NCBI GenBank assembly: GCA_001770205.1
Contig: MEQL01000055.1
Span: 56,551-76,550 of the forward strand
Origin: Bdellovibrionales bacterium RIFOXYD12_FULL_39_22
GTDB lineage: Bacteria; Bdellovibrionota; Bacteriovoracia; Bacteriovoracales; Bacteriovoracaceae
Direction of reading: 5' to 3'
DNA length: 20,000 nt
A model generated the notes under the pieces. It made no database searches and was not told the origin of the DNA. It saw nothing but the letters and a program-made list of their open reading frames with translations. The translations under genes and the position numbers were made by a program. Shown piece by piece: positions 1 to 20,000 of this stretch. Within the stretch, counting starts at the first letter, position 1. The number at the start of each line of letters is the position of its first letter.

Positions 1-3000
1 TTACTATAAGTTCCGTTCGCAATAGTAATGTTCATTGTTCCATCAACGTATGTGGAGGAGGTTCCATCTCGCCAGGTAGCAACCAACATTGGAGGCCTAG
101 TATCTTCGGCGGTAGTTAGTAGATATGTTTCACTATCCGGAACATCGCTAATAAAGACTTTATTGTTGTATGTGTTGGCCGCTTTTTCTGATTTGTTAAA
201 ATTAAGCGTTATACAGCGAGCATCATTAATTATCTTGGCCGCACGATAACGCACAGAACTTTTATACAACTTCTTACTACCCTCTGGAATAAATGTACAA
301 ACGCTGGCCGTGTCGGTAGAGATTATCGTTCCAGTAGTAGTAGTTGCGCACATCGGAATGCTATTTTCATAAGTCAACATTCCGGCACCTAGACTAGCAG
401 TACAAATATTTCCATATTGGTCATAAGGAGTAGAACAAATTTGCAAAGAGTTTTGGTCGGCAGAAAAAGTAAAGACAGTTCCACCGGCAGTTGTATAACC
501 AATTGGTTCATTGGCACCACCAGTATTATTTGTTCCTGTGGGCAGTGTCGTATAATTTATCGTAGCGGTAGTCGGATCTGAATTGTTATGAAAATGTACC
601 ACATCAAGCGGGCCATGATTCATTGCAAAGGCAAAAGTGGCAGTATAACTACCAGCACTAGGAACAGACATGGTTGCGGTCATAGTGTAACTCTGCTCGG
701 CCTTCGGAAATTTAGCATGGATGGCATATACTGAATAACTCGCACCATCGTAAGAATACGCCACCGGAGATAGCGTCGCTTGCACTGAAGTTATTGTGGG
801 ATTAACTATAGTGGTATTTCCAATTGTCGGCATCTCTCCAAATAGCGATCTTGTCGGAACTGCTCCTGCTAAAAATGAAAAAGTTATAGTTCCATCAGTA
901 GTCGCATCCAACCAGTTTCCATTTTCATCAGTGGCCTTAACAATAACTGAAGTATCGGAATCGGTGGCTGTATAAGAATTTAGGGCCACTCCTATTTTCT
1001 CCCAATCTCCCGGAGTAACTTTTAATGTGACATAAGAGGTTGCACTCCCGGAAGCATAAGAAAGGCCAGAATCATCAAAAGTACCAGTAAATGCTGATGA
1101 TAATGCTACTACTCCCGATCCCATAGAGACAGTCCAAAAACTTGGATGACTGCCTGTTAGCATTGCAGTGTTATCTGCACTAGTGGCCGCCAGACTTCCA
1201 AAGAAATTCCATGAAGTGTTGGAAGTATCTGCCGCAGTTGCCAAATAATTTCCAAACTCATCTTCTAAAACTGCCAAATAGGAAGTTTGCGTGGCAGAAG
1301 TTTTTAGCAACTGACATGGCGTAACACTACCGCTTCCACACTGATAATCTACGTTGTCGTGATTGGTATCACTCAGGCCTCGACATAAATTAGGAACGAA
1401 ATCTGTAGAAAATACAATCTTAACCGCATCATATGATTGGTTTTCACAAATGGCCGTTGGTGTGCCAGAAACATAGCGCAAGTTAACACGTTTAGGCGGC
1501 CCACGATAAATAGTGATAGGATTATTAGTACGATAATTTAAATGGCCGGCAAAATAAGTATAATAATCATCATCTCCATACCAGCCAGGAAGTGGGCCAG
1601 CAAAATCATAGGTGGTAGAGGCAGCAATCGTTTCTAAAAAGTCTCTTGTACTTAATGGATATCTGGCCTCAATTGCCGCCACTCCAGAGTTAAAAGTATG
1701 AGTCTGGGTATCAACATGAACAAATGGCCGATAATTAGCATCTCTAAACATTATTTTTAAGTCAGTAGATCTTCCGTTTCCAAAGCTCAAACGTATGGTG
1801 GGAGTACCATCAGTACCAAGTAACCAGGTTCCGGTGGTAGTAGTTGGCAAATATTCCTGATTGTAGTCTTCAAGCGAATAGGAAATAATGGGACGAGTCC
1901 CTTTGCTATCTACTCCATACGCAGAACCACTACTATTTGGATAATTTGTAATCGGTAGTGATAAAACCGGGTCTGATCCATCGGTTGTCGAATTAAATCT
2001 TTCAATACTTATTCTAGTGTCATAGTAACCATTGATCTTATCGCAGGTATTACCAAACTTATCTTTAAACGAAATTTCGACTGGCGTAAATTGTCCGGCC
2101 AGGGCAGAATCATTGTTTGGATAATCACACCTCGTCCTATCCAAACAACTATTCATCATCGCCCGAATATAACTCGGACGATCAGCATTTACTGTTAATC
2201 CTAGTCCCTCAAAAGTATATGTCGTTCCATCAAGCGTTAATCTGGGAATTAGTTTATTTTGGTAACCAATTTTTGTTGGACGATAAATTAATCCCGTTGT
2301 TCCCGCAGCACTTGTACCATTTGTAAAAGTTAACTCTGTTCCAGCAACATTTGTCCTTCTCAAAATTGTTCCAGTTTCGGCTGTTCTTAAAAACATCGTT
2401 GGATCTGGAGTGGTCCAAACCAAAACATCACCAGCGACATCTCCAACATCGCGCAGATAGTTTCCCGAACTATCAATGACTGCCGCATAAAAGGCCAAAG
2501 AAGAAGTATCGGTGGCAGTCATCGTCTGTGCTCCATAGACTTGCGCTCCGAGATTTTCCCGATTTATCTGAGTATTATCAAAAATATCTGCCGCAAAAGT
2601 GTAGCTCGGCCCATCCATAGAATTGGCCACAACTACACCACCTGGAGATCCGGGGGCCACGTAAATTTCTACCGCGGTTGCATCATAAAGATTGGCCTCA
2701 TTTCCTGCCTGGCCTTCTCGATTATCACTAACCCAAACTCGGGTAACTCCTGCGTTGTAGATAGTAACTGCCTCAGGTATGGTGTATTCACCGTTAAAAA
2801 AAGTATAGGTTGTTGATTGATTGGCCGGAGGCAATACATTTTGACGTCCACTCCAACTAGGATATTCCTGATAGGAAAAGCTTAGGGCCCGCGGAAAATT
2901 ATCTGCCTCTTCTGCAATATTTTGTTCAACGTCAGTAATTGCCAGTTGAAAATTAAATGGCACTCCCGCATCTTCATAATTTCTCCGTCGAGCAGCGACC

Positions 3001-3653
3001 TGTGCACACAATGCTTCTTGTTCGCAACCAAATTCTAATGAATATTTAACACAAAGAGCATTCCAAGTATCAACGGAAAAAGTATTATCTCGACAATCTC
3101 TAAGCGTCATTGATTCACTGTCAAAAATTTGCTCATAGTATGGGTGAGTATTGCCAACTGTAGTATAGTGGGTAGTACGCAAATCTATCATCGCAATACT
3201 TTCCATTGCACTACCAGGAAGAACTTTCAAGTTAAAGGTATTGGAGGCAAAAAATTTTGTGGCCGAGACATTAATGTCAAAAGAACCTCCCGATGAGCCT
3301 AAAGTCGTATCTCCAAACTTAATAGCAGTAGAAGCATAGCCCGCTGAATTGGTTTTTGTTTTGGGTGTACTAATTGTGATAAAAGATGAATCAAAGCCCA
3401 CAACATTACTATAGCGAAATGCTATTGCCGTATTGGCAATCGGGTTACCGTGCATATCGACGAGTCTAACTCTAAGTGGTTCATATACAGATCCCGGTGC
3501 AACCGTTTGGTTATTACCACTAACAATCACCAGCGAAATATGTAGGCCACCTTTTTCGATTTCCTCATTTAAATTTTTGGTACAAGAATAGTTGCCCAGC
3601 AAAGCTAGCACTAGCAGGATGGAGGTCAAAATGGTGTCTAATACTCTTTTCAT
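1..3653 (-). CDS. Giant Ig-like (Big_1/invasin-type) repeat lipoprotein, 3'-truncated by the window edge (at least 1217 aa); paralog of the upstream 3965-aa protein
   Basis: Not in the ORF track, consistent with no stop inside the window. Manual translation from ATG at 3653: MKRVLDTILTSILLVLALLGNYS-C-TKNLNEEIEKGGLHISLVIVSGNNQTVAPGSVYEPLRVRLVDMHGNPIANTAIAF...KTNSAGYASTAI. This gives a lipoprotein-type signal (Cys24) followed by a Big_1-like motif. Every segment I translated in this frame was open, including the window edge (...TYVDGTMNITIANGTYS). An AGGA Shine-Dalgarno-like sequence lies in the last codons of the upstream gene, with an 8-nt intergenic gap. Confidence 0.93.
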   Translation of the reverse strand, partial: MKRVLDTILTSILLVLALLGNYSCTKNLNEEIEKGGLHISLVIVSGNNQTVAPGSVYEPLRVRLVDMHGNPIANTAIAFRYSNVVGFDSSFITISTPKTKTNSAGYASTAIKFGDTTLGSSGGSFDINVSATKFFASNTFNLKVLPGSAMESIAMIDLRTTHYTTVGNTHPYYEQIFDSESMTLRDCRDNTFSVDTWNALCVKYSLEFGCEQEALCAQVAARRRNYEDAGVPFNFQLAITDVEQNIAEEADNFPRALSFSYQEYPSWSGRQNVLPPANQSTTYTFFNGEYTIPEAVTIYNAGVTRVWVSDNREGQAGNEANLYDATAVEIYVAPGSPGGVVVANSMDGPSYTFAADIFDNTQINRENLGAQVYGAQTMTATDTSSLAFYAAVIDSSGNYLRDVGDVAGDVLVWTTPDPTMFLRTAETGTILRRTNVAGTELTFTNGTSAAGTTGLIYRPTKIGYQNKLIPRLTLDGTTYTFEGLGLTVNADRPSYIRAMMNSCLDRTRCDYPNNDSALAGQFTPVEISFKDKFGNTCDKINGYYDTRISIERFNSTTDGSDPVLSLPITNYPNSSGSAYGVDSKGTRPIISYSLEDYNQEYLPTTTTGTWLLGTDGTPTIRLSFGNGRSTDLKIMFRDANYRPFVHVDTQTHTFNSGVAAIEARYPLSTRDFLETIAASTTYDFAGPLPGWYGDDDYYTYFAGHLNYRTNNPITIYRGPPKRVNLRYVSGTPTAICENQSYDAVKIVFSTDFVPNLCRGLSDTNHDNVDYQCGSGSVTPCQLLKTSATQTSYLAVLEDEFGNYLATAADTSNTSWNFFGSLAATSADNTAMLTGSHPSFWTVSMGSGVVALSSAFTGTFDDSGLSYASGSATSYVTLKVTPGDWEKIGVALNSYTATDSDTSVIVKATDENGNWLDATTDGTITFSFLAGAVPTRSLFGEMPTIGNTTIVNPTITSVQATLSPVAYSYDGASYSVYAIHAKFPKAEQSYTMTATMSVPSAGSYTATFAFAMNHGPLDVVHFHNNSDPTTATINYTTLPTGTNNTGGANEPIGYTTAGGTVFTFSADQNSLQICSTPYDQYGNICTASLGAGMLTYENSIPMCATTTTGTIISTDTASVCTFIPEGSKKLYKSSVRYRAAKIINDARCITLNFNKSEKAANTYNNKVFISDVPDSETYLLTTAEDTRPPMLVATWRDGTSSTYVDGTMNITIANGTYS

Positions 3654-3661
3654 TTTAACTA

Positions 3662-6600
3662 TTATTTCCTTCTTAAAATCAATTTACCCTGTCCATCAAC
3701 TATTCCACCTAGGCCATAATCAAACATGGCCGCGTTGGAAGGATCCGTTCTGTATATAAATACATCATTGTTCGTAAATCCCAAACTTGTGGAAGAACCC
3801 ATAGACGGACTAATAGTTTGTGCATTGGTATATAAGCAAAAATAGTTATCTGACGTCGTTGCCAACCCTGCGGCAGCATTAGAATTTTTGCTTAAATCAA
3901 ATCCTTTAATATTTTTATTATTTCTGCACTCAAGTACTAGCGCAACCGTTGCTAACGTTAAATCATCTGGATTTGTACCACTTTCATGGACGGCAATAAT
4001 TTTCTCTTCCACCGCGACATAGACAATATTTTGTCCTAAAGCACCACCAACGCTGGAAAGGCCATCGGCAACTTTTAAATCAACAACACTAACATCCGTA
4101 TTGTTAACGCCTGTATACGTACTTGCGACAACCGAGTTTAAGGTTAAACTATCTTTAATCAGATTATTATCAACGTCTGTCGTAAAATAAACCGCCCCAT
4201 TAGTTGCCATTACAACTGTAGAAATCACTCCCAATCCTATTCGACTTGCTTGTGCCATGGTTTCTAGATTAATCACCACCACCGCTCCACCTGCTGCATA
4301 GGCAACATAATCCGTTCCATTTGATCGCGTAGTTGCCAAATAATTTATCTCACTTGACCCGCCAGGAATAATGCCAAAGCTTCCTGCCGCCCAACTATCC
4401 ATCGCCTCGTTGCGCGCAGCAATTTTGCCATCTACAAATGAATTATCAGAACTTGAACTATAAGCGCTAGTTACTAGATGAATTTGATCATTGGCAAAAT
4501 CAAACACCGTTAAACCACCTTCTCGACCAATAAATAACTTACCGGCGATCGCGGCCATATGATTTATTGATCCCCAACCAGAAGGCATAGCATCAGTGTT
4601 GGCATTTATACGCATAAATTTTTTATTTGCAGTAGCATCGACAATCTCCACATAATTTAGAGCATAGGCCAAAACCATGGCCTTATTTGGGAAATCATGA
4701 CGAGCGCTTCTATAATTCTCGTTAGGATCTACTGTTGAATTATATTCATCATACCAAGACAAATTATCATCGGTGGCCCAAGCTTCTGTTGTTGGAATAT
4801 CCCAAAAAATTGCCTTAGATATTGCTGCGGAGTCTATATCATCATAATCGAAAGTTCCCGTTGCCGTCGTGCCGGTAGCAACCACCACGTTTGCTGTTCC
4901 ACTAGCATCTGTACCAATCCGTAAAGTAAAGGTTCCTGTTTCAAAACCAGTAATGATTGTTCCAAGATCAACTTCGTTATAGTTTTCTGGACGCACATAA
5001 TTTCCACCACCTTTTTCAAGCATCCATTCAGTAGCAGAAGAAGACTCTGTGGGCAGATAATAATTATTATAATCATCAAAGGCAGCAACATAATATGTTC
5101 CGCTAACATTTAAATTTAACGAAATAGCTGCTCCCAAATTTTGAGCGGCCGACGCAGAAGAGGAAACACGATAGCAGGCATTATTTTCGCTATCAGCACT
5201 CACTGTAAATGTTGCCGAATCTCCAACAACCGGCGAAATAGTACTCATCACGCGATTACTATTGGCCACCTTAAACTTGGCCTGGAAGGAATAAACTCCG
5301 CTACTAAATGGCACGGCCGTAACCGATCCATAGGTCTCCAGACTACTTAACGTTCCACAGCCAGCAGTATTCGCGCTAGGGATTGTAAAAGTAAGAGTGG
5401 TGGAAGGAGCGGTTGCCACCGTTACACCGCTTTCATCTTTGGCCGTTACCATTACCCAGGTGTCAACTCCGGCGGTGACGGCAGGTGTTGTATCAACATC
5501 TATATTGTAGTACGCAATTCCATCTTTTTTCAAATATAGAAGTGGTGATGTTCCCGCCACACCGCTATGAGTGGCCACAATATGTGTTCTCCCGGCCGTG
5601 GAGGCGGTTAAATTAAATGTCCCAGTTGTAGCAGTGGCCGGGCCAATTACAATGGCCGTGCTATCCACGGTGGACCAGACCGCATTTGCCATCTTAGAGA
5701 TAAAATTTCCATAAGCATCATAACCGTAGGCCACAAAGCTAGCAGAAGTTGCAGTGCTTGCCTTATCCCAAACAGTGGTGGATGGCCCACTGGTAGGTAA
5801 ATTATCTCCACCGTAACTGCCATCACTGGCCAGTACAACTTTTATTTTAGAAAGTGTATTGGGAGCAATCCAACTATGATCAACCGTGGTGGCCAGCGGC
5901 GCCTGCAAAGCGCTAACACAACTACCTAATCCGTCCGTGCCACACACTTGGGTAGTAAGAATCGGGGACGATCCATCGGCAGTGTAGAAAGTAAATGTTT
6001 TATCCAAATAAGTTGTTCCACTGGCCAAAACAAATGATCCAGAAACGTTGGTAGTAACTGGATTTTGCAATACCGGGTCTGTATGTGAGTTTGCAAAATT
6101 GGCCCAGGTAAGTTTAAACTGTCTCGGCCCGGCGGCCAATGCCGTTTTATAGAAGCGACTATCTACCGCGATAAAGCGCACGGTAGTATCGGCCCCAGTC
6201 GTAAAGGCGGCCACTCCACTAATTGCCGCCGCTCTGCTGGCCACTCCTCCCGCACTATAACTCTCCCCTGGAAAGAGCGGCATGAAATATTTTAAATCTC
6301 CTGGACTTACTTTCAATCCGACGGTACCCGAAGAGGCGGTTATCGCATTAAAAATTGAGCCGGTGGCCGTGGTAGAAACTTCCAGTGTCCCACCCGATGC
6401 AGTAAAGGCCGCAATCGATGCCCCGGCGGCAGTTACCCAGCTAACGCTATCATTGTTTCCAAGAAAATTTCCTCCGGCATCATAAGAAGCCGCATACATG
6501 GTAGTGCTTTGGCCGATTTTTAAATTAACGGTTGTTCCATTAAGCAGTGAACCTTCGCCATTACTACCGGTGAAGATTTTTGTACAGGCCACTGGCCCTG

Positions 6601-12600: not shown

Positions 12601-15559
12601 TTACTATGCTTCCATCAACATCCACTCCATTTACTCTAACATTTGAGGCGGCGTTAGGAGCTGGACTGGCCGACGTATCCACCAAGTAAAGTCTGGCCGT
12701 CCAAGGATCTCCTTTGGCATCAATCCAGTTATCAAGTTTATCAAAGGCCCGAACAATCAAAGTTGCCGTCGCTGTTGAAACCAACGAGTCCATCGCTATT
12801 TCGTATTTATAGGCCTTATCTGAAACAATTTTGATCACATTATAAGACGATAGAGACTTAGCGTACGTCCCCCCCTCATCGTATTCAAATGTATAGTTGC
12901 CAACCGTAGAAAGGCCGATGGCGCCAAAAGATACTGAACCAGGAATTACTGCCACATTTCCAGCGGGGAAAGTTACTAGCCCGGCCGTTTTTAAGGAGCC
13001 AAGCCCACTGCCTGTAACCAGTGAAGTGGTAAAATCAATGGGATCATAGTCGCCGCCAGCGGCATAATTTGCATCAACCACATTCCCCCACTTATCTTCA
13101 AAAAAAGCTGCGTAGGTATACGCTTCATTACTGGCAGTGTAGCTAGTACAAAAATTAAGTGTATTATCCGCAAGAGCATCACACTTATAGTTTGGATCTG
13201 GATTGGAGCTTAGAACACCACTACATCCATCTCGTGTAAAATTTTGAACAGTTCCGGCCAAAGAGCGACGCCAAAAACCATTTTTACACACTGGCATCCA
13301 TGTTCCACCTTGATTGCTTCTTAAATTTATATATTCTGCCTCACCACGCCAGACGGTAATTCGAGGTGCTCCACTGGCCACAGCGTCTGTAGTGATCGCT
13401 CCACTTTTTCCGGAAGGAATTAGTCCGCCCATAAAAGAACTTTCATTACTAACGATACTTATATAGGGCCGGTAATGAATGTCTTTAAAGGCCATGCGAA
13501 GGCCCGCATTTTCTGCACCATAAGAGGTTCCGTAAATAAAGCGCAAAGGAATAAGCGTTCCTCCGGCCGCAGTTACCAGCTGCCCTGCGCTATTAGGCCA
13601 AGCAGGCAATGTTGTGGCGGCCGTTGCACAAAGATTGGGATCGCCATAATTGTAGGCCAGGGGACTAGAGTAAGAATAATCAGAACAAACATAGTAACCC
13701 ATTACGACACTATTGGCCTGCACAATGGGAAAGGCCGCAAATGTACCAAACGTTCCTGCATTTTCAGTGTAAGCAGAGATAGATAATCCACCGCTACTAT
13801 TTGGAACAACTGGGGAGACAAAATCGGTGGCAGTTTGCGAAGTTGTCATATTGTAGTAGTTGACATCCACACTAACATCAACAGTATCATCAATCACATC
13901 TTCGCAAACATTCCCGTAGCGATCGGCCAGTATAACCCTAATTGGAGAAATTACCCCCGCACGAACTGTATTTTCGTGGCCAGCAATATCCCCGGCCGAA
14001 GTAATAAACTTATATGGCAAATTGTTTTGTACAATAACACTCGCCCCGTAGGTGAAAGCATCATCTTGAACAAAAAGAAAACCATCGCCTTTGGTTTTAG
14101 GAGTAAAAAACAGTTGCTCATTGGTATCGCCCTGCACTGCTGCATTAACTAGCACCTCATCATGAAAAAGATTAGTTGCCGAAGCATTAGTAAAAACATC
14201 AGCGGTAAACGTCCAACTCTCCACGGTGGAACTATCTCTTACGTAATTTCCTCCCGCATCAACGAGTGCCGCAGATAAGGTGGTGGCCGCATTACTGGCC
14301 AAAAAATGATATCCTTCATACACCGGTTCGGTTCCAACATTAGTACGTACCTGTTCCTCCGAACCGTCAGGCAAGGTCATCGTCGTGAAAGTATAGCTGG
14401 GCCCTCCCTCTCCATTTTGAATCACCACACCACTGACATTTCCCCTTTGGACAAAAAGATCAGCGGCCCCCGATTTTAATCCGGTGGCCGGTGCACTGGC
14501 CACCACTCTTATTTTTCCAAAACCGTTGGCAGTAAAGGGAGTTGCCGTCGCAATAGTGGTTCCCCCAACCCAACAAACTCCATTAATGAACTGGCACAAC
14601 TGTGAATAACCCGCCCCCGGCAAAGAAGAAGTCTTTCCAGTCCAACTGATCCCTGCATCATTTTGCCAATCCACCACCACAGTAGCATCTGGAAAAGTAG
14701 AAACCGGTGCGCCCTTGTAGTCAGTAACAACTATTTTAAAACGAAGTGCCTCTCCGGCAGTGATAAAATTTCTCTTAAATCTTTTAGAGTACAGCGCCGG
14801 ACACTGCTCTGAACACAAATTAAGATCCGCAGCACAGGATTCATCGCTTTCGCATACCGGATTTATCACGTACTCATCATCATCAATTGGTAATAGCGAG
14901 CCAGAAACGGAATCAGGAATCTTTCCATACCACTCGTGGCCGGTGACAGATTGATCAGTCGAAACATCGAAAAACTTATCTGTCTCCAAACTAAAGGCAA
15001 ACGGTTCACCTTCACTGACGTCCATAGAAGACGTTATCTGCATCACAAATTTTACCGATTGAGAAAAAGAGGGAATAGATGCGACAACATAAAATTTCTG
15101 ATCCGGGAAAAGAGTAGCTCCGGCCATAACCAATGCAGAAGCACGTCCATATTTATCAGTATGGGTCTCTTCTGGTAGAATCCGAACATCTGCCACACTA
15201 CGATTGATATTAAAGGAGTCAGGATAAGGCTCCGCACGAAACGACACCTGCACTCCCTCCATGGGAACTTTGCCACCCGCGCTGTCACTGTAAAAAGAGA
15301 CCTCTAAGGGTTTAGCAAACAAGCTACCAAGACTGGCATATTGCATAGGATCATCGCCACTGACTTTCAACAACAGCGTTCCCATGGTTCCATCGCCTGG
15401 AACTTTTTTCGAAGAACAAGAATTGGTGATTATAATTGCTGTTGCAAATAAAACAGAAATGAAAAAGAGGCGAAGACTCTTTGCCCAAAAAAATGTCACG
15501 AATTTATTCAACTCGCCAAATTTCATTTTTCTCTCATTCCCATCGCCAAACTTCACCAC
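3662..15559 (-). CDS. Giant (3965 aa) surface lipoprotein / putative adhesin with tandem Ig-like domains and a distinct C-terminal beta-rich domain
   Basis: 11.9-kb uninterrupted ORF. Hydrophobic N-terminus ending in IIITNS-C (Cys48), a lipobox-like site. First domain is Big_1-like (VSGDDPMQ...PLEV...P.EGVQVSF...TDKYGRASA). The motif AG..F.V.V.A.D.Y.N recurs many times. Rich in Thr/Ser/Ala/Gly. The true start could be GTG 15559, GTG 15556 or ATG 15526. Confidence 0.92.
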   Translation of the reverse strand: MVKFGDGNERKMKFGELNKFVTFFWAKSLRLFFISVLFATAIIITNSCSSKKVPGDGTMGTLLLKVSGDDPMQYASLGSLFAKPLEVSFYSDSAGGKVPMEGVQVSFRAEPYPDSFNINRSVADVRILPEETHTDKYGRASALVMAGATLFPDQKFYVVASIPSFSQSVKFVMQITSSMDVSEGEPFAFSLETDKFFDVSTDQSVTGHEWYGKIPDSVSGSLLPIDDDEYVINPVCESDESCAADLNLCSEQCPALYSKRFKRNFITAGEALRFKIVVTDYKGAPVSTFPDATVVVDWQNDAGISWTGKTSSLPGAGYSQLCQFINGVCWVGGTTIATATPFTANGFGKIRVVASAPATGLKSGAADLFVQRGNVSGVVIQNGEGGPSYTFTTMTLPDGSEEQVRTNVGTEPVYEGYHFLASNAATTLSAALVDAGGNYVRDSSTVESWTFTADVFTNASATNLFHDEVLVNAAVQGDTNEQLFFTPKTKGDGFLFVQDDAFTYGASVIVQNNLPYKFITSAGDIAGHENTVRAGVISPIRVILADRYGNVCEDVIDDTVDVSVDVNYYNMTTSQTATDFVSPVVPNSSGGLSISAYTENAGTFGTFAAFPIVQANSVVMGYYVCSDYSYSSPLAYNYGDPNLCATAATTLPAWPNSAGQLVTAAGGTLIPLRFIYGTSYGAENAGLRMAFKDIHYRPYISIVSNESSFMGGLIPSGKSGAITTDAVASGAPRITVWRGEAEYINLRSNQGGTWMPVCKNGFWRRSLAGTVQNFTRDGCSGVLSSNPDPNYKCDALADNTLNFCTSYTASNEAYTYAAFFEDKWGNVVDANYAAGGDYDPIDFTTSLVTGSGLGSLKTAGLVTFPAGNVAVIPGSVSFGAIGLSTVGNYTFEYDEGGTYAKSLSSYNVIKIVSDKAYKYEIAMDSLVSTATATLIVRAFDKLDNWIDAKGDPWTARLYLVDTSASPAPNAASNVRVNGVDVDGSIVTGATACAGSPFPVDGDSDEDYDNLPCTPTAFATASGLSPVPHTIGAETRDVYKIPVVFPRAQEELKLAASGSANWLNGSVKEAYSEVITFTMAAGPLASANLRNEQDVAPSFTYVSGGSYTFTADDNEEPFCVAPIDAFGNYSDITLDNGSVSFDQTSVWSIFKNNRASNSSYEKGCIEVNFITSGLGTLSDSTLLGTWSYGMTSKSASINISILPGVIDHAALDITADATYVAGSNIGLNILKIYDYDNNLLSENAGGTTLNDADNGPKNVTFNLTDSSYLAFTGPENHAPANGVYTFAAGAVVGPTAEANQFKVSTIRPDQKAIISATVMGTSAALATVSKRITLVPSTPNHIDIACLSATGSTGTAGVNFDCDVAVHDLGHNIISTATGASGTVTITLDPEPNLTTANNATFVSSSFFTSTTITSATRFVGTLSAGTGRVTIKMNESKAPSVGFGNLKIKTLSTDAALTTTIASTAFGSADVKIFPRVADHLQFASTPSPTGPYDTVTAWNGPILNIYDNLNNIVWTDSTTLATGSMQGKPEANFAGGPLPTASFSSGSASFAGTRYSVPGSSLTFMATTSTMTAATGPITVNSAASIKYAVIALDGQTTHFPAADIDSVITGVPNSTGTYTAGSTIGARVYFLDDGLSIVGTGVTDDPIETANFRFDMDDAAANAIELATTRSTTSDNDGSGATLTFASLNARTASATGVKYAIRIYHPICDEPNGTGPVICLPSTQYEVKTNPSTTMLAVGLSGQTLHSGFTAHNDAFPDIPFGGTKVAGSSFTVFAHVTDAYHNVLPTVATASISMPGRAANSFSFVSTTATLTNGTGAFVAYDFRASTVPSGTIVVNVPATPSWGSGTATIYSIAAGTAARVIAIMSSQAATFGDRNESVANVLGVVPDGSACSSLPVKFKVVDRYFNPVTATTASGVLSFNTTDTNDIAKADIQSITFTSGSASINMSTYSRGTWTLSTVGTVAGASFTAASGTYRAPILLASASKAIVELPGQTHTDGSWPLATATTQTAGVNFNVKVIATDNCYNRITTTTSSATVTTLNTSSNATYNLGAMSSGTVGGAIALHKAMSSQYVTPVVTGLTSVPSSMFTVASNTAVKNIVLTLPGQTLITGVATTAEALANSPQDQRAGTAFTVKAFLVDNYFNIETTGTDAVGVSLGAANMAGVVNGIFSDTNALLGGQFTFNSAAAGSLSFNVTNRLSTSVSGSSLRFVPQGGSAGITTHFTSSAYEVDPGNAAYSILYFPSAETHREGYTTWSGGARLINSAYTMTAGSAVNFMAKLVDANFNTVTSDNRGFTLNTSSQTTSDILSFSSGTYLGSYTEYKRTHTGALHYLSITNSGVGTNYQSSSFVARTNPSATKLLALLPGQSLKEGKLSSASAVSGAPSTQTVGSIFDVRVVAVDQYFNHINTTSAITGVTFSFIGDTYATAPTATNIWGSCTLDTGYTSDAGGCITLGSAFNKHAGLGKALVPVNTAGIVSFTSSSYVVNEGSGKRIVYGFSDQTLVEGISTLTFLPSMATATKNAGVDFGVRLYAVDDYHNITTDSSTSVWSIKNSVDSLTAPVGSYTFSSGVINFAARDSAVGDSKTFTFTNSGSYTHTALANRVEYDVTTGSSNISFLVAVANQISTYNYGVDTAAEALGSIAVGTQTAGSSFAVLIRAVDSNFNTISNFSPPTSLAFQFINTTPSPNGDIARVHGVMSSPTFTNGTYLFTAALGSFVLYNSSNTNVKLKVVSEGPDIIGYSPYPIPVTANSSAAVLKIVDAPNGSEIDTLAYPTNATSADPTFWAAKYDSFGNFIGNDTTADWTFTRTDGTLITTPFSAIPMASVTNASSVVLNLIQSGEMVVTATSQAVGSPPADSSGIISISAGNADHFDLALSTAGDITSASAFNIIITAMTSSDTTAVSYTGVRSIVFSPSSNADGSSECSGINLISNVTGTKAITFAGGSGTFTSGTLYRPDTYTISAVDRDNVLIGGTTTAHVVPGPVACTKIFTGSNGEGSLLNGTTVNLKIGQSTTMYAASYDAGGNFLGNNDSVSWVTAAGASIAAFTASGGTLEVSTTATGSIFNAITASSGTVGLKVSPGDLKYFMPLFPGESYSAGGVASRAAAISGVAAFTTGADTTVRFIAVDSRFYKTALAAGPRQFKLTWANFANSHTDPVLQNPVTTNVSGSFVLASGTTYLDKTFTFYTADGSSPILTTQVCGTDGLGSCVSALQAPLATTVDHSWIAPNTLSKIKVVLASDGSYGGDNLPTSGPSTTVWDKASTATSASFVAYGYDAYGNFISKMANAVWSTVDSTAIVIGPATATTGTFNLTASTAGRTHIVATHSGVAGTSPLLYLKKDGIAYYNIDVDTTPAVTAGVDTWVMVTAKDESGVTVATAPSTTLTFTIPSANTAGCGTLSSLETYGSVTAVPFSSGVYSFQAKFKVANSNRVMSTISPVVGDSATFTVSADSENNACYRVSSSASAAQNLGAAISLNLNVSGTYYVAAFDDYNNYYLPTESSSATEWMLEKGGGNYVRPENYNEVDLGTIITGFETGTFTLRIGTDASGTANVVVATGTTATGTFDYDDIDSAAISKAIFWDIPTTEAWATDDNLSWYDEYNSTVDPNENYRSARHDFPNKAMVLAYALNYVEIVDATANKKFMRINANTDAMPSGWGSINHMAAIAGKLFIGREGGLTVFDFANDQIHLVTSAYSSSSDNSFVDGKIAARNEAMDSWAAGSFGIIPGGSSEINYLATTRSNGTDYVAYAAGGAVVVINLETMAQASRIGLGVISTVVMATNGAVYFTTDVDNNLIKDSLTLNSVVASTYTGVNNTDVSVVDLKVADGLSSVGGALGQNIVYVAVEEKIIAVHESGTNPDDLTLATVALVLECRNNKNIKGFDLSKNSNAAAGLATTSDNYFCLYTNAQTISPSMGSSTSLGFTNNDVFIYRTDPSNAAMFDYGLGGIVDGQGKLILRRK
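7300..10800 (-). repeat. About nine tandem, divergent Ig-like protein repeats of about 115-150 aa ('LPGQT...AG..F.V...VD.Y.N' type)
   Basis: Unit-start motifs at about 10770 (ALDGQT), 10325 (GLSGQT), 9945 (IMSSQA), 9570 (ELPGQT), 9230 (TLPGQT), 8810 (FPSAET), 8450 (LLPGQS), 8045 (GFSDQT) and 7675 (VANQI). Each is followed by a core such as AGSSFTVFAHVTDAYHN, AGVNFNVKVIATDNCYN, AGTAFTVKAFLVDNYFN, VGSIFDVRVVAVDQYFN or AGVDFGVRLYAVDDYHN. The repeats are visible at protein level only. Boundaries are approximate. Confidence 0.8.
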
Positions 15560-15585
15560 ACTCCAAATCGTTACTATTTTAGACT

Positions 15586-15613
15586 GTTTCGGTTTATCGC
15601 TTCGCGATGTTTA
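15586..15613 (-). promoter_or_regulatory. Candidate sigma-28 (FliA)-type promoter upstream of the giant lipoprotein gene
   Basis: Minus strand reads TAAA-N16-ACCGAAAC, compared with the sigma-28 consensus TAAA-N15/16-GCCGATAA. It ends about 27 nt before the GTG at 15559. Confidence 0.4.
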
Positions 15614-15752
15614 GTTATTATTATAACCACTCCTGCCAATATCTATATCTGGCCATTAAGCTGTTAAATTTTGCCTACCGACTTATTATAGTCCTTCAAT
15701 CGTAGCGGTCAGAAATGAAACCTATTTTCAATGAGTTGCCGGCCAGACAAAA

Positions 15753-15771
15753 GTTGACAATTATCATTAAC
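15753..15771. promoter_or_regulatory. Fur-box-like imperfect palindrome
   Basis: Minus strand GTTAATGATAATTGTCAAC matches the classical Fur box GATAATGATAATCATTATC at 14 of 19 positions. It lies in the intergenic region between the barrel gene and the giant gene. Confidence 0.3.
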
Positions 15772-15830
15772 TGCCCACCACAGTTGGCAGTGGCAAGTAC
15801 AAAAAAAGTGTAGCAATTAATTTATTGAAA

Positions 15831-16472
15831 TTACTTGTAGTTTAAAGTTATGCCAACAAGTGCTGTCATTGTGCTTCCACTGACGGCATAAACGGTAAAA
15901 CCAAAAGCGTAAGAGTAGCCAATGCGCGCCTCTACCCCCCAATTTTTATTAATTGGATATATTGCGCCGCCATGCGCTCCAGCATCAAATGCCACAGAAT
16001 GTAAGACGACACCGGAATCGTATTCACGCAAATTAACATCGACAACACCAAAATCCCAACCGACAAAAAAGCGATAGCGCGGACGAGAGGAGACAACGTT
16101 TTGACTATCGCTTTCTTCAATGGCCATTCCCGAAGAGCCTAGATAATAACGATTTCCAAAAAAACCTCCCAGATAAGCAACCATCCCTGACGTTGTATTC
16201 ATGGCCACCACACCTTTAAAAAAAACGGCACTATTGGAGTTAAAAAAAGACTCATACTCCGCTTGGACCGTGTTTGTGCCAGTATGATTGTAAGTGTTAT
16301 TTGCTCCGGTATAAGTGCCCGAAGAGGTTCCCAGACTAGCATGAATTTGGGAGTATCCATAGGCCATTTTACTGCCTCCTTCCAGCACCACTAGCAACAC
16401 AAAAATCAAACAATAAATCCCCAAACGTACAACAATAGCTCTAGCACAATATTTTTTTAAATTAAGCAGCAT
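15831..16472 (-). CDS. Small outer-membrane beta-barrel protein (OmpA/OmpW/PorT-size, about 8 strands)
   Basis: N-terminal hydrophobic signal-like segment (possible cleavage at AYG|YSQ). Amphipathic Gly/aromatic strands: VQAEYESFF, YLGGFFGNRYYL, RYRFFVGWDFG, FDAGAHGGAIYPINKNWGVEARIGYSYAFG. Ends in a beta-signal-like strand (LVGITLNYK). The start overlaps the upstream stop by 11 nt. Confidence 0.8.
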   Translation of the reverse strand: MLLNLKKYCARAIVVRLGIYCLIFVLLVVLEGGSKMAYGYSQIHASLGTSSGTYTGANNTYNHTGTNTVQAEYESFFNSNSAVFFKGVVAMNTTSGMVAYLGGFFGNRYYLGSSGMAIEESDSQNVVSSRPRYRFFVGWDFGVVDVNLREYDSGVVLHSVAFDAGAHGGAIYPINKNWGVEARIGYSYAFGFTVYAVSGSTMTALVGITLNYK

Positions 16473-18678
16473 TTCTCACATCCAAAGTTGTTGAAGTTGT
16501 TTGGCCTTGCTGTGCCTTTTCTCCAATCCAATCGTCAATAATTCTATCAATCTCCGGAGAGGCCGACTCATCAATACTTAATTCCTTTCGGAAAAACTGG
16601 ATGAAGGCCCGCCCAATCTTTTCCTTAAAGGATTTGATGGTTGATACTTTGCTTTCATTTTCTAAAATCAACTCCATGTCTGCCTCAATAAAGGATCGCA
16701 TCTTAGAATTTTTATCTCCAAAGACGGAAAGATAAAATTCTCTTTCTGCATCATCTAAAGAAAGCAAAAATTCTACTCGTTGATCTCGCTTATACTTCAT
16801 TAAAATTTTACGAACTACATCTTCGGAAAGACGATTGATCAATTCACCAGGAAAATTTTCTCGCGCTACCTCTTTTAAAATTTCTACTTTGCCATTGCGA
16901 TAGAGTGAATCAAAAAGTGCTCTCTCTTTTTCTAATCCAACGTAAGGAATCATATCGACGATTTTATCTAAAAATGGAGCATAAACACTCTTTTGTTTTG
17001 TATCCAGGGTAGAAAGTAATTTTGTTAACTCTTCGCGCTTTTCATTTAACAAACCGTCTGTGTAATTTAATCCATAATCTGAAAGCAACAAGGCCGTCTC
17101 TTGATCAATTAGTTCATAAGTGTCCGCAATAAAATCAGTAGGCAGTACGTTTAATAAAATTGACCCTATTTCAAAGTCATCGCGCAAAATACGTGCACAC
17201 TCTTGTGGAGTAATTCGCGAAAGAATCTTCTTAGATTCTTTATCCAAAGTAGGTGGAGGTAAAATAATATCTTCCATAATCTGTGCTTCAATAAAAGTAT
17301 CTCCCAGGCGCAAGTTGTTTTTATCCATATCGGTAACTAAATTTTTCTTCCATTGCGCACGTTCGGTAACCGACAGGTTATCAAAAATATATAACAAATC
17401 GTCAGTAGATGATTTTTTAATAATAATAGTCAGGGCCTGCGTTGACCCTTCCGCCTGTTGATTAATCCATCTCCGAATTAACAACAACGCCTCATTGGGG
17501 GAAGATTTTAGCAGAGACATAAATCGGTCAAATCCCACCAGAGGAACATCATCGTCCAAGGAAATAGTTCCACCACTCATACTCAACTGGCCGGCCAACA
17601 TGCCTCCGACCCCTTCACCTCCGGCACCCGTAGGAGCATGTGCCGCGGCCTGCTGCGCCGGAGTTTTAGTGAATGCCTCATCCAGCGTGGTCAAAAATTT
17701 ATTTCCAAATTGGATCATTCTTCCCAAAAGAGCAAATCCTAAAAATCCTATCAACAGCGCAAACAGCACAATTGCAATAGGAATTTTAAATTCCCGGATC
17801 ATCTTTAACACAGGGTTTTCTTCTACCCGCTCGGCCGCTTTTTTGGCCTCTTCTAATTCCAATTTTAATTTGGCCAAACGCGCTTCTTCTTCTTCTCTTT
17901 TAGCGTTGGCCTCATCAGGCGGTATCAGTCCTATTGAAGCGTATGATACTTGCGGAGTAACAGCAGCAATTGGCGTAACAATCCGCTGTAATAAATCTTT
18001 AACCATATCCTGACGCAGTGGCGAAACACTTTTATCTATTAAAACTTCCACTGTGACATTTTTGATTCGATCCATGATGCTAACTGATTCTTGATTTAAA
18101 TTTATTTGTCCTAAAATCTCACGCAGCGATGGCTCGTTTTTATTTTTTTCATCCTCTGTTTGTCCTCCTAATTGAATTGGAAAAGGAAGATCAAACTTAT
18201 CAATAAACAGCGCATTCTCACCGTTGTCGTACTCTTGCGCATTCCGAACAAAAGGATTGGCGGCATCCTTTGCCTGTTTTTCTCTTTGTTTTTCTTCTTC
18301 TTTTTTCTTCTCCTCCAACTCTCTGGCCGCTTTCTCTTCGGCCTCTTTTAAGGCCGCCTTCTGCTTGGCCCGTCGCTCCACCGACTCGGTATCATCCTCG
18401 ATGGAAATCGTAACATTAACAACATATTCATTTGGTTTTAAGATCGAGCTAATTCCGTTGCTGATTTTATTTCTTAAATTATTTTCCTGCTCTGTTTTCT
18501 GAGTAAAAATATCACTAGCAAAGGCCAGTGGATTTATAGAAAAAAACAGCGCTATTAGTCCCCCGGCCAGCAAGAAGCGCAAAGAAAAAAACGCAACGGG
18601 CCCTTTTTTCGCCAAACTTCCGCTCCGATCATTATCATGCTGTTTCATTTGCGATACCTCTATCATGTTCTTTCTCAT
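16462..18678 (-). CDS. Putative FliF-like/FliG-like fusion protein (signal peptide, periplasmic ring-building motif with coiled-coil insert, one TM helix, FliF-C helix, FliG N/M/C-like domains)
   Basis: Signal peptide ends AFA|SD at aa 54. aa 60-95 (EQENNLRNKISNGISSILKPNEYVVNVTISIE) and aa 203-252 (RIKNVTVEVLIDKSV...MVKDLLQRIV...PQVSYASI) resemble the two halves of FliF RBM3. TM helix at aa 299-319. aa 383-407 (FMSLLKSSPNEALLLIRRWIN) resembles the FliF C-terminal 'P..A..IR.W' helix. aa 410-447, 480-535 and 568-700 follow FliG N, M and C helix patterns (e.g. ENFPGELINRLSEDVVRKIL vs EMFxFEDL..LDD..IQ.LL). Alternative start ATG 18648 has a GAGG upstream. Confidence 0.75.
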   Translation of the reverse strand: MRKNMIEVSQMKQHDNDRSGSLAKKGPVAFFSLRFLLAGGLIALFFSINPLAFASDIFTQKTEQENNLRNKISNGISSILKPNEYVVNVTISIEDDTESVERRAKQKAALKEAEEKAARELEEKKKEEEKQREKQAKDAANPFVRNAQEYDNGENALFIDKFDLPFPIQLGGQTEDEKNKNEPSLREILGQINLNQESVSIMDRIKNVTVEVLIDKSVSPLRQDMVKDLLQRIVTPIAAVTPQVSYASIGLIPPDEANAKREEEEARLAKLKLELEEAKKAAERVEENPVLKMIREFKIPIAIVLFALLIGFLGFALLGRMIQFGNKFLTTLDEAFTKTPAQQAAAHAPTGAGGEGVGGMLAGQLSMSGGTISLDDDVPLVGFDRFMSLLKSSPNEALLLIRRWINQQAEGSTQALTIIIKKSSTDDLLYIFDNLSVTERAQWKKNLVTDMDKNNLRLGDTFIEAQIMEDIILPPPTLDKESKKILSRITPQECARILRDDFEIGSILLNVLPTDFIADTYELIDQETALLLSDYGLNYTDGLLNEKREELTKLLSTLDTKQKSVYAPFLDKIVDMIPYVGLEKERALFDSLYRNGKVEILKEVARENFPGELINRLSEDVVRKILMKYKRDQRVEFLLSLDDAEREFYLSVFGDKNSKMRSFIEADMELILENESKVSTIKSFKEKIGRAFIQFFRKELSIDESASPEIDRIIDDWIGEKAQQGQTTSTTLDVRNAA

Positions 18679-18693
18679 AAATACTCTCTTGAA

Positions 18694-19431
18694 TTACTGT
18701 TGTTGAGGTGCTTCTCCCTCAAGAGGAGCTCCTTCAGTAGTTCCTGTATTGCTATTTTGATTAGTTGTATTTCCAGTTGTGTCTGCTCCAGCGCCGCTAC
18801 CACCACCACCTTCGGATGTAAGATTAAACTGCTTTTCTACGGCCCGCTTTAATCGCAACGCCTCTACATTTCCCGAATTATATTTAATGGCCATCTTGAA
18901 ATTATCTAAGGCCTGCGTGTATCGTTGCTCAATAAGATCAACGCCTCCTTCAAATTCATAGATAACTGATAGGTAAGGAAATTGAACTTTTATTTTATTT
19001 AAAATTTCTCTGGCCCGAACCAGTTCTTTTTTTCGAATCAATTTCTGACACTCAAAAAGATCGGTCACCACTGAATCAATAGAATTTGCCATATCCAAAA
19101 AGTTGGTGGCCTCCATTTTAACTTTAATTTCAATATCTCTGGCATTAAGATCGGTAACAATAACCGTTGAAGAAAGATATCCTTCCTTGCGCAGCTCTAA
19201 AAACATAGTTCCAGATCCACCAAAGGCATCGCTAACATCGCTCGACTGAATGGTCAGCGGCGTAGTTCCAATTTTTTTGGAAGTACTATCGGATAATTTC
19301 CTTATATAGATATCGGCCTTGGTAGGATCGCTGTTAATTGTAATGGTTGATGAAGCACATGCCACCAACCCCAATAGCAAAAGACCTCGTCCCATCTTTG
19401 CTGCTAACAATAAACTTTTTCTCGCCAACAT
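18694..19431 (-). CDS. PEGA-domain + TPR lipoprotein
   Basis: GGGGAG Shine-Dalgarno sequence just upstream of the ATG. Lipobox LVA-C (Cys25). PEGA signature ITINSDPTKADIY...IGTTPL...LELRKEGY. TPR-like helices (AREILNKIKVQFPYLSVIYEFEGGVDLIEQRYTQALDNFKMAIKYNSGNVEA). Low-complexity G/T/N/Q tail. Confidence 0.88.
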   Translation of the reverse strand: MLARKSLLLAAKMGRGLLLLGLVACASSTITINSDPTKADIYIRKLSDSTSKKIGTTPLTIQSSDVSDAFGGSGTMFLELRKEGYLSSTVIVTDLNARDIEIKVKMEATNFLDMANSIDSVVTDLFECQKLIRKKELVRAREILNKIKVQFPYLSVIYEFEGGVDLIEQRYTQALDNFKMAIKYNSGNVEALRLKRAVEKQFNLTSEGGGGSGAGADTTGNTTNQNSNTGTTEGAPLEGEAPQQQ

Positions 19432-19558: not shown

Positions 19559-20000
19559 CATAGGTGATCGGTATTTTTCATGCCTTTTTTCCTGTCATTC
19601 GTAAAACATGTTGTACAGAGGTCTTTCTCCTTTTGTTAGGATCAAATAATTCATCTAATTTTAAGAGCAAATGGATGAATGATTGTTGTGACAATAATCG
19701 ACACCAACACTAAACTCATAACAATGTTGGCATTTGCAGAAGAAATATCAGCGATTCGCAAACTTCCCTTGGCAGTTTTAAAAAGTAATTCCACCGACCA
19801 CCTAAGCCGATATAACGTCGTCAATTGCCTGAAAAAGCGCAAAGTCAAAATATCCGAGATCAAAGATTATAAGATATCCTGCGACTGTTTTTAAATCCGG
19901 AAAATGATTGTGATCGTTGCTAGTTCCAGGACTTATATCAAACCATTTTACAACACCGCCAAAAATGTCAAAGCAGTGATGCCACTTTATCACCGCCGCG
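19559..20000 (-). mobile_element. Degenerate IS4-family insertion sequence, right end (continues beyond the window)
   Basis: Transposase remnant plus a candidate terminal inverted repeat CATAGGTGATCGGT starting at 19559, 19 nt beyond the transposase stop. Several IS4 subgroups have ends beginning with CAT. The partner end is outside the window. Confidence 0.65.
19578..20000 (-). pseudogene. IS4-family DDE transposase remnant, internally deleted and frameshifted
   Basis: Three pieces separated by frame changes: KWHHCFDIFGG...DISPGTSND...LIIFDLGYFDFALFQAIDD (second catalytic Asp region); LYRLRWSVELLFKTAK (exact IS4 Y-2-R-3-E-6-K signature); and a likely C-terminus DELFDPNKRRKTSVQHVLRMTGKKA* with its stop at 19578-19580. 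Confidence 0.88.

Follow-up and report, generated by a model that had tools for sequence, protein, structure and literature searches.

The core of the flagellar motor consists of the FliF MS-ring, FliG and MotA5B2 stator units, and the FliF ring contains ~33-34 subunits. To our knowledge, neither FliF nor FliG has been described outside the flagellum. In the gliding and type IX secretion system (T9SS) apparatus of the Bacteroidota, the ion-driven GldLM motor (MotAB class) operates with the lipoproteins GldJ and GldK and the giant adhesin SprB. In Myxococcus, the Agl-Glt gliding complex spans the envelope and combines a motor of the TolQR/MotAB class with TPR proteins, small outer-membrane barrels and an adhesin on the surface; relatives of it are found in predatory bacteria. 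Giant Ig-like adhesins include the intimin/invasin Big_1 proteins and the RTX adhesins SiiE and LapA. Here, we analyzed a stretch of 20,000 nucleotides (nt) from Bdellovibrionales bacterium RIFOXYD12_FULL_39_22 (the window), which encodes a FliF::FliG fusion protein of 738 amino acids (aa), together with a TPR lipoprotein, a small outer-membrane barrel and two giant lipoproteins.

The 738-aa protein is a natural fusion, in which the third ring-building motif (RBM3), membrane anchor and C-terminal helices of FliF are joined to the N, M and C domains of FliG, and it lies outside both Pfam families as these are defined. Related modules, many of them with linked MotA and MotB genes, occur in other genomes, and the module is apparently a real rotor-stator envelope machine that is undescribed in the literature searched. 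Whether three core parts of such a non-flagellar machine, with large lipoproteins as its load, are encoded in the right-hand 3.6 kb of the window is in our view an even call. The five open reading frames (ORFs) of the window are all on the minus strand, and its features are as follows.

18694..19431, minus strand: PEGA-like/TPR lipoprotein, 245 aa, with lipobox and low-complexity tail (translation, Pfam, homolog profile).
16462..18678, minus strand: FliF::FliG fusion, 738 aa (AlphaFold 2 (AF2) model, VIA-align, Foldseek, family profile against PDB).
15831..16472, minus strand: 8-stranded outer-membrane beta-barrel with signal peptide, 213 aa (AF2 model and Foldseek).
15560..15830, minus strand: intergenic spacer separating the barrel gene from giant 1; contains a promoter-like site (consensus match only).
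3662..15559, minus strand: giant lipoprotein 1, 3965 aa (translation, N-terminal alignment, homolog in genome G067).
1..3653, minus strand: giant lipoprotein 2, N-terminal 1217 aa of 5919 aa (ORF 3-3653, open at the window edge; whole protein at 42444-60203 of contig C55).

Spacings recomputed from these coordinates (15-nt gap, 11-nt overlap, 271-nt gap and 8-nt gap, all genes co-directional) equal those in a preliminary description of the window. The gap between the barrel gene and giant 1 becomes 304 nt instead of 271 nt if the start is the ATG located 11 codons after the listed GTG.

Comparison of the fusion with FliF and FliG showed the following order of elements: a transmembrane (TM) helix, an RBM3-like domain split by a charged disordered insertion, a second TM helix, a linker, the FliF C-terminal FliG-binding helices and a FliG-like N-M-C part. 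A family profile was made from an alignment of 84 fusion members, and formed the basis of the conservation counts, the PDB profile search and the AF2 model (pLDDT 81.8). The model contains a TM helix (residues 26-46), a helix and strand (57-93), a long charged helix with a disordered stretch (96-200), a strand-helix-strand unit (205-249), a long hydrophobic helix (298-337), a disordered linker and an all-helical domain (381-737). As in FliF, the two TM helices flank a periplasmic part, here of ~250 aa in the model.

When the 84-member profile was searched against PDB, it matched FliG (E 2e-06; Salmonella FliG, E 0.0035) as well as the C-terminal 93 residues of Salmonella FliF (E 0.0024) and a second FliF (E 0.007). 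With VIA-align, residues 55-252 of the model were superposed on residues 232-438 of Salmonella FliF (Z 11.2, root-mean-square deviation 2.8 Å, 91 residues aligned), and the periplasmic domain matched the Vibrio FliF S-ring with Z 9.9-10.8 and 21-22% identity. Because the RBM3 match covers both halves of the domain, the insertion of the fusion occupies the place of the FliF beta-collar. Its length across the family is 42-261 aa, with a median of 83, and a short conserved motif within this low-confidence region contains K161, the sole invariant residue of the periplasmic part. Folds of OsmC/Ohr, MamM/CzrB and PrgK/EscJ also matched the periplasmic domain (Z 7.5-10.1), and were set aside, as FliF RBM3 ranks first and spans the insertion. 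We read the OsmC/Ohr and MamM/CzrB matches as a common alpha-beta sandwich, and the PrgK/EscJ matches as a related ring-building motif.

The cytoplasmic half contains the FliG-binding helices, where the family profile aligns to residues 467-559 of Salmonella FliF. Within these FliF-C-like helices W404 is present in 84/84 members, F386 in 75/84, and R385 is R or K in 80/84. Residues 410-716 of the model align to FliG 4-329 (VIA-align, Z 11.0), covering the full-length FliG fold of three armadillo-like domains, and the 11 best Foldseek matches of the model are all FliG, with 212-343 alignment columns. We take the torque-helix residues of FliG that face MotA to be R281, D288, D289 and R297 (E. 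coli numbering). In the hidden Markov model alignment, K659 falls at R281 of Salmonella FliG (K/R in 77/84) and D667 at D289 (D/E in 84/84), and the position of D288 is hydrophobic in the fusion family. P610 and R697 are both invariant (84/84). The MFXF hinge of FliG is replaced by F-P, which includes the invariant P610. The PDB profile search, Foldseek and VIA-align thus bear out the FliF/FliG derivation that the preliminary description had proposed.

The fusion family comprises 294 clusters (50% identity) matching at E<=0.001, of which 129 match at E<=1e-30, mostly of 600-750 aa. A word-based search with the fusion returned 6 proteins only, the closest with 65, 55, 48 and 49% identity, and one of them labelled Bacteriovoracaceae bacterium. 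The genome of the window also contains a separate canonical pair, for which a check had been suggested: fliF (568-aa ORF, 206.6 bits) and fliG (139.4 bits) lie side by side on contig C39. Alignment of the family with this single FliF and FliG by hhalign was weak (probability 0.4% and 13%), and is superseded by the profile-to-PDB and fold comparisons. A third FliG_C match in the genome (55.1 bits; contig C4 54543-54860) falls in an ORF of only 149 aa, away from the flagellar cluster. Short paralogs of 368-418 aa with only the FliG-like cytoplasmic half were seen near full modules (locus L035, 2464-3570, in G018:C5; locus L087, 6120-7370, in G049:C13).

To describe the occurrence of the module, we used a family sample of 121 genomes and a phylum sample of 301 genomes (threshold E<=1e-20). 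The module was present in 49/121 genomes of the family (~40%), and in 39/301 of the phylum sample, distributed over six families. Its gene neighborhoods were examined in a first survey of 14 loci from related genomes and a second of 38 loci with 10 kb on each side, ten of which are shared with the first set. The gene for the TPR lipoprotein lies directly upstream of the fusion gene in 14/14 loci of the first survey, and adjoins it in 37/38 of the second. A barrel homolog was found in 9/14 and 30/38 loci, respectively. The linkage of the fusion to both small partners, as expected in the preliminary description, is therefore conserved; the giants, which it had placed in the same neighborhood, are not universal partners.

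Two module types differ in gene order. The order lipoprotein-fusion-barrel is found in six loci (the window, G067, G108, G116:C2, G013:C2 and G036), whose barrels are the most alike, and the other type has the order barrel-lipoprotein-fusion. The genome of the window (G000) carries a second, paralogous module on contig C23 (locus L032/L101, e.g. L101 8357-19663), which encodes the lipoprotein, a fusion (657 aa), MotB, MotA, a protein of 566 aa (cl14) that has a signal peptide and a charged coiled-coil region, and the barrel, in addition to two lipoproteins of ~1260-1280 aa of the cl5 family and, further on, a cl8-like protein. No fliM or fliN was found in the loci examined, and no flagellar genes stand beside the module there; fliE, fliH and fliI are absent from the window, as had been noted before.

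The 245-aa partner of the fusion has a lipobox (LLGLVAC) in its translation and a low-complexity, G/T/N-rich tail after the TPR C-terminal half. It had been described as a PEGA-TPR lipoprotein. The TPR half is clear, with a profile of 16 homologs matching TPR proteins in PDB (best E 1.4e-45); the PEGA part falls below the Pfam cut-off (E 0.0043). Complex prediction for fusion residues 47-292 with lipoprotein residues 26-206 gave a score of 0.01, against a mark of 0.32, and speaks neither way. For the 213-aa protein, the AF2 model (pLDDT 81.3) shows a signal helix, eight long strands and a short hairpin. Foldseek retrieved NspA (E 1e-07), the OprF N-domain, Ail, OmpA, OmpX and OmpW among 55 matches at E<=0.001. 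Pfam and NCBIfam gave no match for this protein, and the PDB profile search with the barrel alignment gave nothing significant (best NspA, E 0.31). The eight-stranded fold seen in the model and in Foldseek confirms the earlier assignment as an outer-membrane barrel.

The partner set in the preliminary description missed the stator genes, which are usual partners of the module. In the first survey, a pair of genes for ~265-aa and ~260-aa proteins occurs in 8 and 6 of the 14 loci, encoding MotA (MotA_ExbB, 59.7 bits) and MotB (MotB_plug and OmpA); MotA is present in 24/38 loci of the second survey and also in the closest ortholog locus. MotA_ExbB, MotB_plug and OmpA are above the Pfam cut-offs in module-linked genes, including those of this ortholog locus (L045), and the linked pair has the plug, the conserved Asp and an OmpA-type peptidoglycan anchor. 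These stators score best against the flagellar MotA/PomA/MotP and MotB/MotD models, and not TolQ/ExbB, with all scores below the equivalog cut-offs. The genome of the window has 6 MotA matches in all.

The ortholog locus L045, in a metagenome-assembled genome (MAG) labelled Bacteriovoracaceae bacterium (fusion 49% identical), is arranged in two divergent arms: MotA, MotB and a HEAT-repeat protein in one direction, and a 247-aa protein, the lipoprotein, the fusion and the barrel in the other. The best matches of the second arm in the genome of the window are the window's PEGA-like lipoprotein (56% identity), fusion (49%) and barrel (35%), and those of the first arm are MotA (58%), MotB (47%) and HEAT (30%) on contig C7, where these three orthologs lie in the same order near the contig end, bounded by a repeat.

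The window is the final 20 kb of contig C55, in an assembly of 3.95 Mb and 62 contigs. Upstream of the lipoprotein gene, a spacer of ~200 nt is followed by a decayed DDE_Tnp_1 transposase (IS4/IS5-type) that reaches the contig end; the remnant is in two frames at 19640-20000 of the window on the minus strand (Pfam E 1.1e-08 and 9.6e-05), and is extended by locus L046, 1-640. The region upstream of the operon is not visible, because the window stops at the contig end inside this remnant. Related copies of the element are located at the end of C44 and inside C57, C59 and C2. A locus search with a 5-row fusion alignment returned one MAG locus, one short fragment and two independent metagenome contigs identical to the window, both of which break in the same transposase remnant. 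A related-locus search with the single fusion protein as query found nothing.

At its end, C7 has a 92-nt repeat that is also found at the start or end of several other contigs. On C59, this repeat occurs ~720 nt before a copy of the element in which the window ends, and the order and orientation there fit a join between C7 and C55. We consider it probable that the MotA-MotB-HEAT genes of C7 are joined to the contig end of the window, as in L045. The membrane-anchored HEAT-repeat protein encoded after MotB was seen in this module subtype only (L043 7195-8130, from C7 of G000, and L045 5775-6827; Pfam HEAT_2, E ~1e-08), and no HEAT homolog is labelled among the 38 surveyed loci.

Both giants of the window begin with a signal peptide and Cys, and they are the largest ORFs of the assembly. 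Alignment of six giants from five genomes revealed a common N-terminal plan of an invariant Cys, a short linker and a Big_1-like first domain. Their bodies are rich in S/T/G/A/N, with no internal repeats detected by BLAST self-comparison. Of the earlier label "Ig-like", only a weak form stands: Pfam Big_1 covers residues 45-112 of giant 2 (E 4.4e-05, 23.9 bits against a cut-off of 34.9), and Ig-like families and LVIVD (propellers) are among the language-model look-alikes of the giants (scores 0.84-0.95), which we treat as leads only. No Pfam domain is above cut-off in the giants, and NCBIfam gave nothing for giant 1. In the PDB profile search with the N-terminal alignment nothing was significant, the best match being an unrelated small domain (E 0.019). 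RTX and autotransporter barrel domains are absent by Pfam and NCBIfam, in agreement with the preliminary description, and the same databases gave no match to a C-terminal sorting domain of the T9SS for either giant of the window or for the giants related to them.

Giant 2 carries, close to its C-terminus and beyond the window, a fibrinogen-like YCDxxxxGGGW domain (NCBIfam NF040941 GGGWT_bact, E 2.4e-10, 40.2 bits against a cut-off of 30), matched at residues 4516-4559 of the 4717-aa C-terminal piece (region of L002 5845-6450). Judged from sequence, this domain suggests a distal, lectin-like binding tip on a lipid-anchored stalk. Giant 1 has a full-length homolog of 4552 aa in G067 (~25% identity), with which it shares the C-terminal region.

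To follow the linkage of the giants, the N-terminal 1217 aa of giant 2 were used as the query. Homologs were found in 4/121 family genomes, and a fifth, G108, came from the locus survey (total set: G000, G013, G116, G067 and G108). A giant directly adjoins the module in 4/5 of these genomes, in three arrangements. The giants of the window come after the barrel gene. In G013 and G116, a ~6110-aa giant (66% identity between the two) starts 375-460 nt from the lipoprotein gene, divergent from a lipoprotein-fusion-barrel-MotA-MotB cluster. In G108, a giant of at least 2213 aa, interrupted by the contig end, begins 146 nt after MotB. An adjacent giant is thus present in 4/6 loci of the order lipoprotein-fusion-barrel, and loci of the order barrel-lipoprotein-fusion are without such a giant. 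Giants as a general feature of all modules were rejected, only 4 of ~43 loci having one. After the giant, both G116 and G013 encode a conserved signal-peptide protein of ~290-300 aa that matches no family (L059 302-1210, L061 18922-19794).

Other large lipoproteins, of the families cl5 or cl8, are encoded in 24/38 surveyed loci. The cl8 proteins (1,100-1,900 aa) have choice-of-anchor-D/HYDIN-type Ig and fn3 domains. The cl5 proteins have fn3 domains and a weak C-terminal motif resembling FGE-sulfatase (RYGIQD..GN..E and G.RCAV, e.g. L101 15890-17242 and L031 14742-16094; Pfam FGE-sulfatase E 0.0022); the best matches in a PDB profile search are all FGE/SUMF1, with E ~0.2. GldJ, GldK and PorK of the gliding/T9SS apparatus presumably belong to the same fold class. 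In a reverse test of 28 genomes with a cl8 homolog, the homolog and a fusion gene are no more than 13 kb apart in 18, and the homolog is clearly elsewhere in 2; a further 6 were not placeable (short contigs), and 2 were weak matches in genomes without a detected module. G000, G013 and G116 each contain both module types, every one beside its own lipoprotein class.

ORF size by itself was not counted as evidence, because large ORFs are common: those of at least 1000 aa overlap 38% of 20-kb windows in G000, which counts against reading anything into size. The evidence is the family-specific pattern. Any ORF of at least 1000 aa near a module was accordingly dropped as meaningful, several such ORFs matching no lipoprotein family; one of them (in L026) appears by eye to be NRPS-like. 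What supports a tie of the module to large and giant lipoproteins is gene context, in which they adjoin repeatedly but not in every case. The earlier proposal that the giants and the fusion form one system holds in so far as the two adjoin in 4/5 genomes; it does not extend to most modules, which have other large lipoproteins or none, nor to G067, where the giant is unlinked.

Compared with the flagellar motor core, the module has the RBM3 with an insertion at the place of the beta-collar, the FliF C-terminal helices with their Trp, a full-length FliG fold, a charged helix that may correspond to the torque helix, and, in most related loci, linked MotA/MotB with plug, Asp and OmpA-like anchor. 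It differs in combining FliF and FliG in a single polypeptide, in lacking RBM1, RBM2 and the beta-collar, and in not conserving EHPQR. Its surroundings contain no genes for FliM/FliN, an export gate, a rod, a hook or a filament; the TPR lipoprotein, the small barrel and large lipoproteins are its constant partners, and a canonical fliF-fliG pair coexists in the genome.

Laboratory full-frame FliF-FliG fusions of Salmonella assemble into rings, according to their published description (PMC6079021). They share the head-to-tail join with the protein studied here, but contain full-length FliF within the flagellar system, whereas the window protein is natural, shortened and placed in its own gene neighborhood.

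The gliding/T9SS apparatus of the Bacteroidota is similar in coupling a MotAB-class motor to outer-membrane parts, lipoproteins and a giant surface adhesin, and the cl5 lipoproteins near modules have the weak FGE-sulfatase-like motif. However, the rotor here would be a FliF-FliG ring and not GldL/GldM, and the giants are lipoproteins without a T9SS sorting domain. Agl-Glt of Myxococcus has a comparable trans-envelope layout of motor, TPR proteins, small outer-membrane barrels and adhesin, but its motor is of the TolQ/R-like family, it has no FliF/FliG homolog, and no homology to its partner proteins was seen here. With the intimin/invasin and SiiE/LapA adhesins, the giants share very long S/T/G-rich, beta-rich bodies, a weak Big_1 first domain and, in giant 2, a distal fibrinogen-like domain. 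Unlike these adhesins, they have an N-terminal lipobox in place of an N-terminal barrel or a C-terminal RTX/type I secretion signal, and contain no sequence-detectable repeats or Pfam domain above cut-off. We found nothing in the literature searched on a naturally occurring FliF-FliG protein that is non-flagellar and has a stator of its own, in line with the preliminary description, which knew of no characterized system with this gene set.

We propose the following mechanism. The fusion would form an inner-membrane ring via its RBM3 domain, and, by analogy with the flagellar motor, wall-anchored MotAB units powered by an ion gradient would exert force on the charged helix that is conserved in the FliG part. 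A switch complex would not be expected to bind the fusion, because the EHPQR motif is lost and fliM/fliN are not nearby. Movement could then pass through the periplasmic ring and its long insertion and reach the outer membrane by way of the TPR lipoprotein and the barrel, with the K161 motif in the insertion as a candidate docking peptide for the TPR domain. For modules of the order PEGA-fusion-barrel, the load would be the lipid-anchored giants of 4,000-6,000 aa, one of which, here, has the fibrinogen-like, probably ligand-binding, domain; for those of the order barrel-PEGA-fusion, it would be the other large lipoproteins of 1,100-1,900 aa.

Two features point to adhesin handling: every module subtype is accompanied by a lipoprotein class of its own, large or giant, and one giant carries the fibrinogen-like binding domain. 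Reasoning from these sequence features, the machine would most likely move or deploy the adhesin-like giants on the cell envelope, whether in surface motility or in attachment to prey. A more specific reading, which we regard as rather unlikely, is that predatory Bdellovibrio-like bacteria have a third adhesin-driving surface machine beside GldLM-SprB and Agl-Glt, in which a MotAB-turned FliF::FliG mini-rotor moves or deploys giant adhesins by torque passed through the TPR lipoprotein and barrel, with paralogous motors each serving its own lipoprotein class. If this were true, the flagellar motor core would be able to function, and might have originated, independently of protein export and of turning a filament. 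A rotor that occurs naturally as one chain, has stator genes of its own and lacks both an export apparatus and an axial structure would represent a new class of envelope machine driven by ions, and bears on the evolution of the flagellar motor core. The association of each subtype with its own class of large or giant lipoproteins offers a testable lead on the job of the module, pointing to adhesin handling in surface motility or prey attachment.

Several observations weigh against a rotor-stator machine that handles the giants. The FliF RBM1, RBM2 and beta-collar are missing, the model having a single RBM-type domain and, at the place of the collar, the charged helix and disordered stretch. 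Pfam YscJ_FliF (PF01514) does not match the fusion, while it gives the canonical FliF of the same genome 206.6 bits; FliG_N, FliG_M and FliG_C do not reach the cut-off (none is listed, and only MgtE_N appears, below cut-off, with E 0.0024), and Pfam and NCBIfam together return nothing above cut-off for the 738-aa protein. The FliM-binding EHPQR motif is not conserved, reading DDFEI in the window protein and E-N-P-E-L in the family consensus. The window has no MotA or MotB gene, and the C7-C55 join is not unique, as several other contigs end in the same 92-nt repeat. An orthologous module (49% identity) was found in G067 only; there it is flanked by unrelated genes, and the 4552-aa giant lies in the interior of another contig with unrelated neighbors. 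No giant was found in G036, which has the same gene order, with the giant 2 N-terminal query, and 12/38 loci have no large lipoprotein within 10 kb, several of these being on short contigs. The 271-nt gap before giant 1 contains a sigma-70-like site (CTGACC-16-TATAAT at 15712..15685, minus strand, 10/12 consensus matches), because of which the giants may be transcribed separately; no terminator-like site was found on the minus strand of the gap.

Some of these points would be explained by a real rotor-stator machine whose giants are unrelated neighbors, the adhesins being surfaced by another route and placed here by local gene shuffling, and the motor serving a different envelope task. The separation of giant and module in G067, both in contig interiors, and the promoter-like site in the gap agree with this alternative, as do the decayed transposase remnant beside the operon, which shows local rearrangement, and the rarity of giants (5 genomes) relative to the module (49/121). 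Chance neighbors, however, would not be expected to adjoin the module directly in 4/5 giant-bearing genomes in three different arrangements: by a rough estimate, assuming one or two modules and ~3,500 genes, chance adjacency is ~1 in 1,000 per genome. The other module type also has its own large lipoproteins nearby in most loci. We consider this alternative doubtful, though it keeps appreciable weight.

The absence of RBM1/2 and the collar, and the loss of EHPQR, so that no switch complex is expected, could also mean that the fusion is a static scaffold, on which MotAB-type units act as Tol-Pal/TonB units do, delivering energy to the outer membrane through pulling or conformational change on a non-rotating ring, possibly aiding the export or release of surface lipoproteins via the TPR lipoprotein-barrel complex. 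No rod, hook or bearing genes are nearby in the window or the surveyed loci, and by analogy a TPR protein and an outer-membrane barrel occurring together may recall lipoprotein-handling systems, which we take to be of the kind of SLAM and BamD-type proteins. Against a scaffold, the FliG part appears to keep the charged helix that faces the stator in flagellar motors (equivalents of R281 and D289, with R697 invariant), and the linked stators are closest to flagellar models and not TolQ/ExbB, if below the equivalog cut-offs. Judged from the modeled fold, an 8-stranded barrel would in addition be too narrow for a folded chain. A static scaffold is improbable on this evidence. The common flagellar descent of all module parts, the complete-looking fliF-fliG pair and the several MotA paralogs would suit an accessory of an ordinary flagellum, such as a second rotor ring or a part of a sheathed flagellum. 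The restriction of the module to 49/121 genomes of the family and 39/301 of the phylum sample, and the lack of flagellar genes beside it in the loci examined, make such an accessory highly improbable. A non-flagellar rotor-stator machine with large lipoproteins as its load remains our preferred reading of the window.

Just downstream of giant 2, and on the same strand, are genes for a 169-aa cupredoxin-like protein (E 8e-06, just under cut-off; L002 5191-5700, minus strand) and a 384-aa PilT-type T2SSE ATPase (E 6.3e-50; L002 4055-5209, minus strand).

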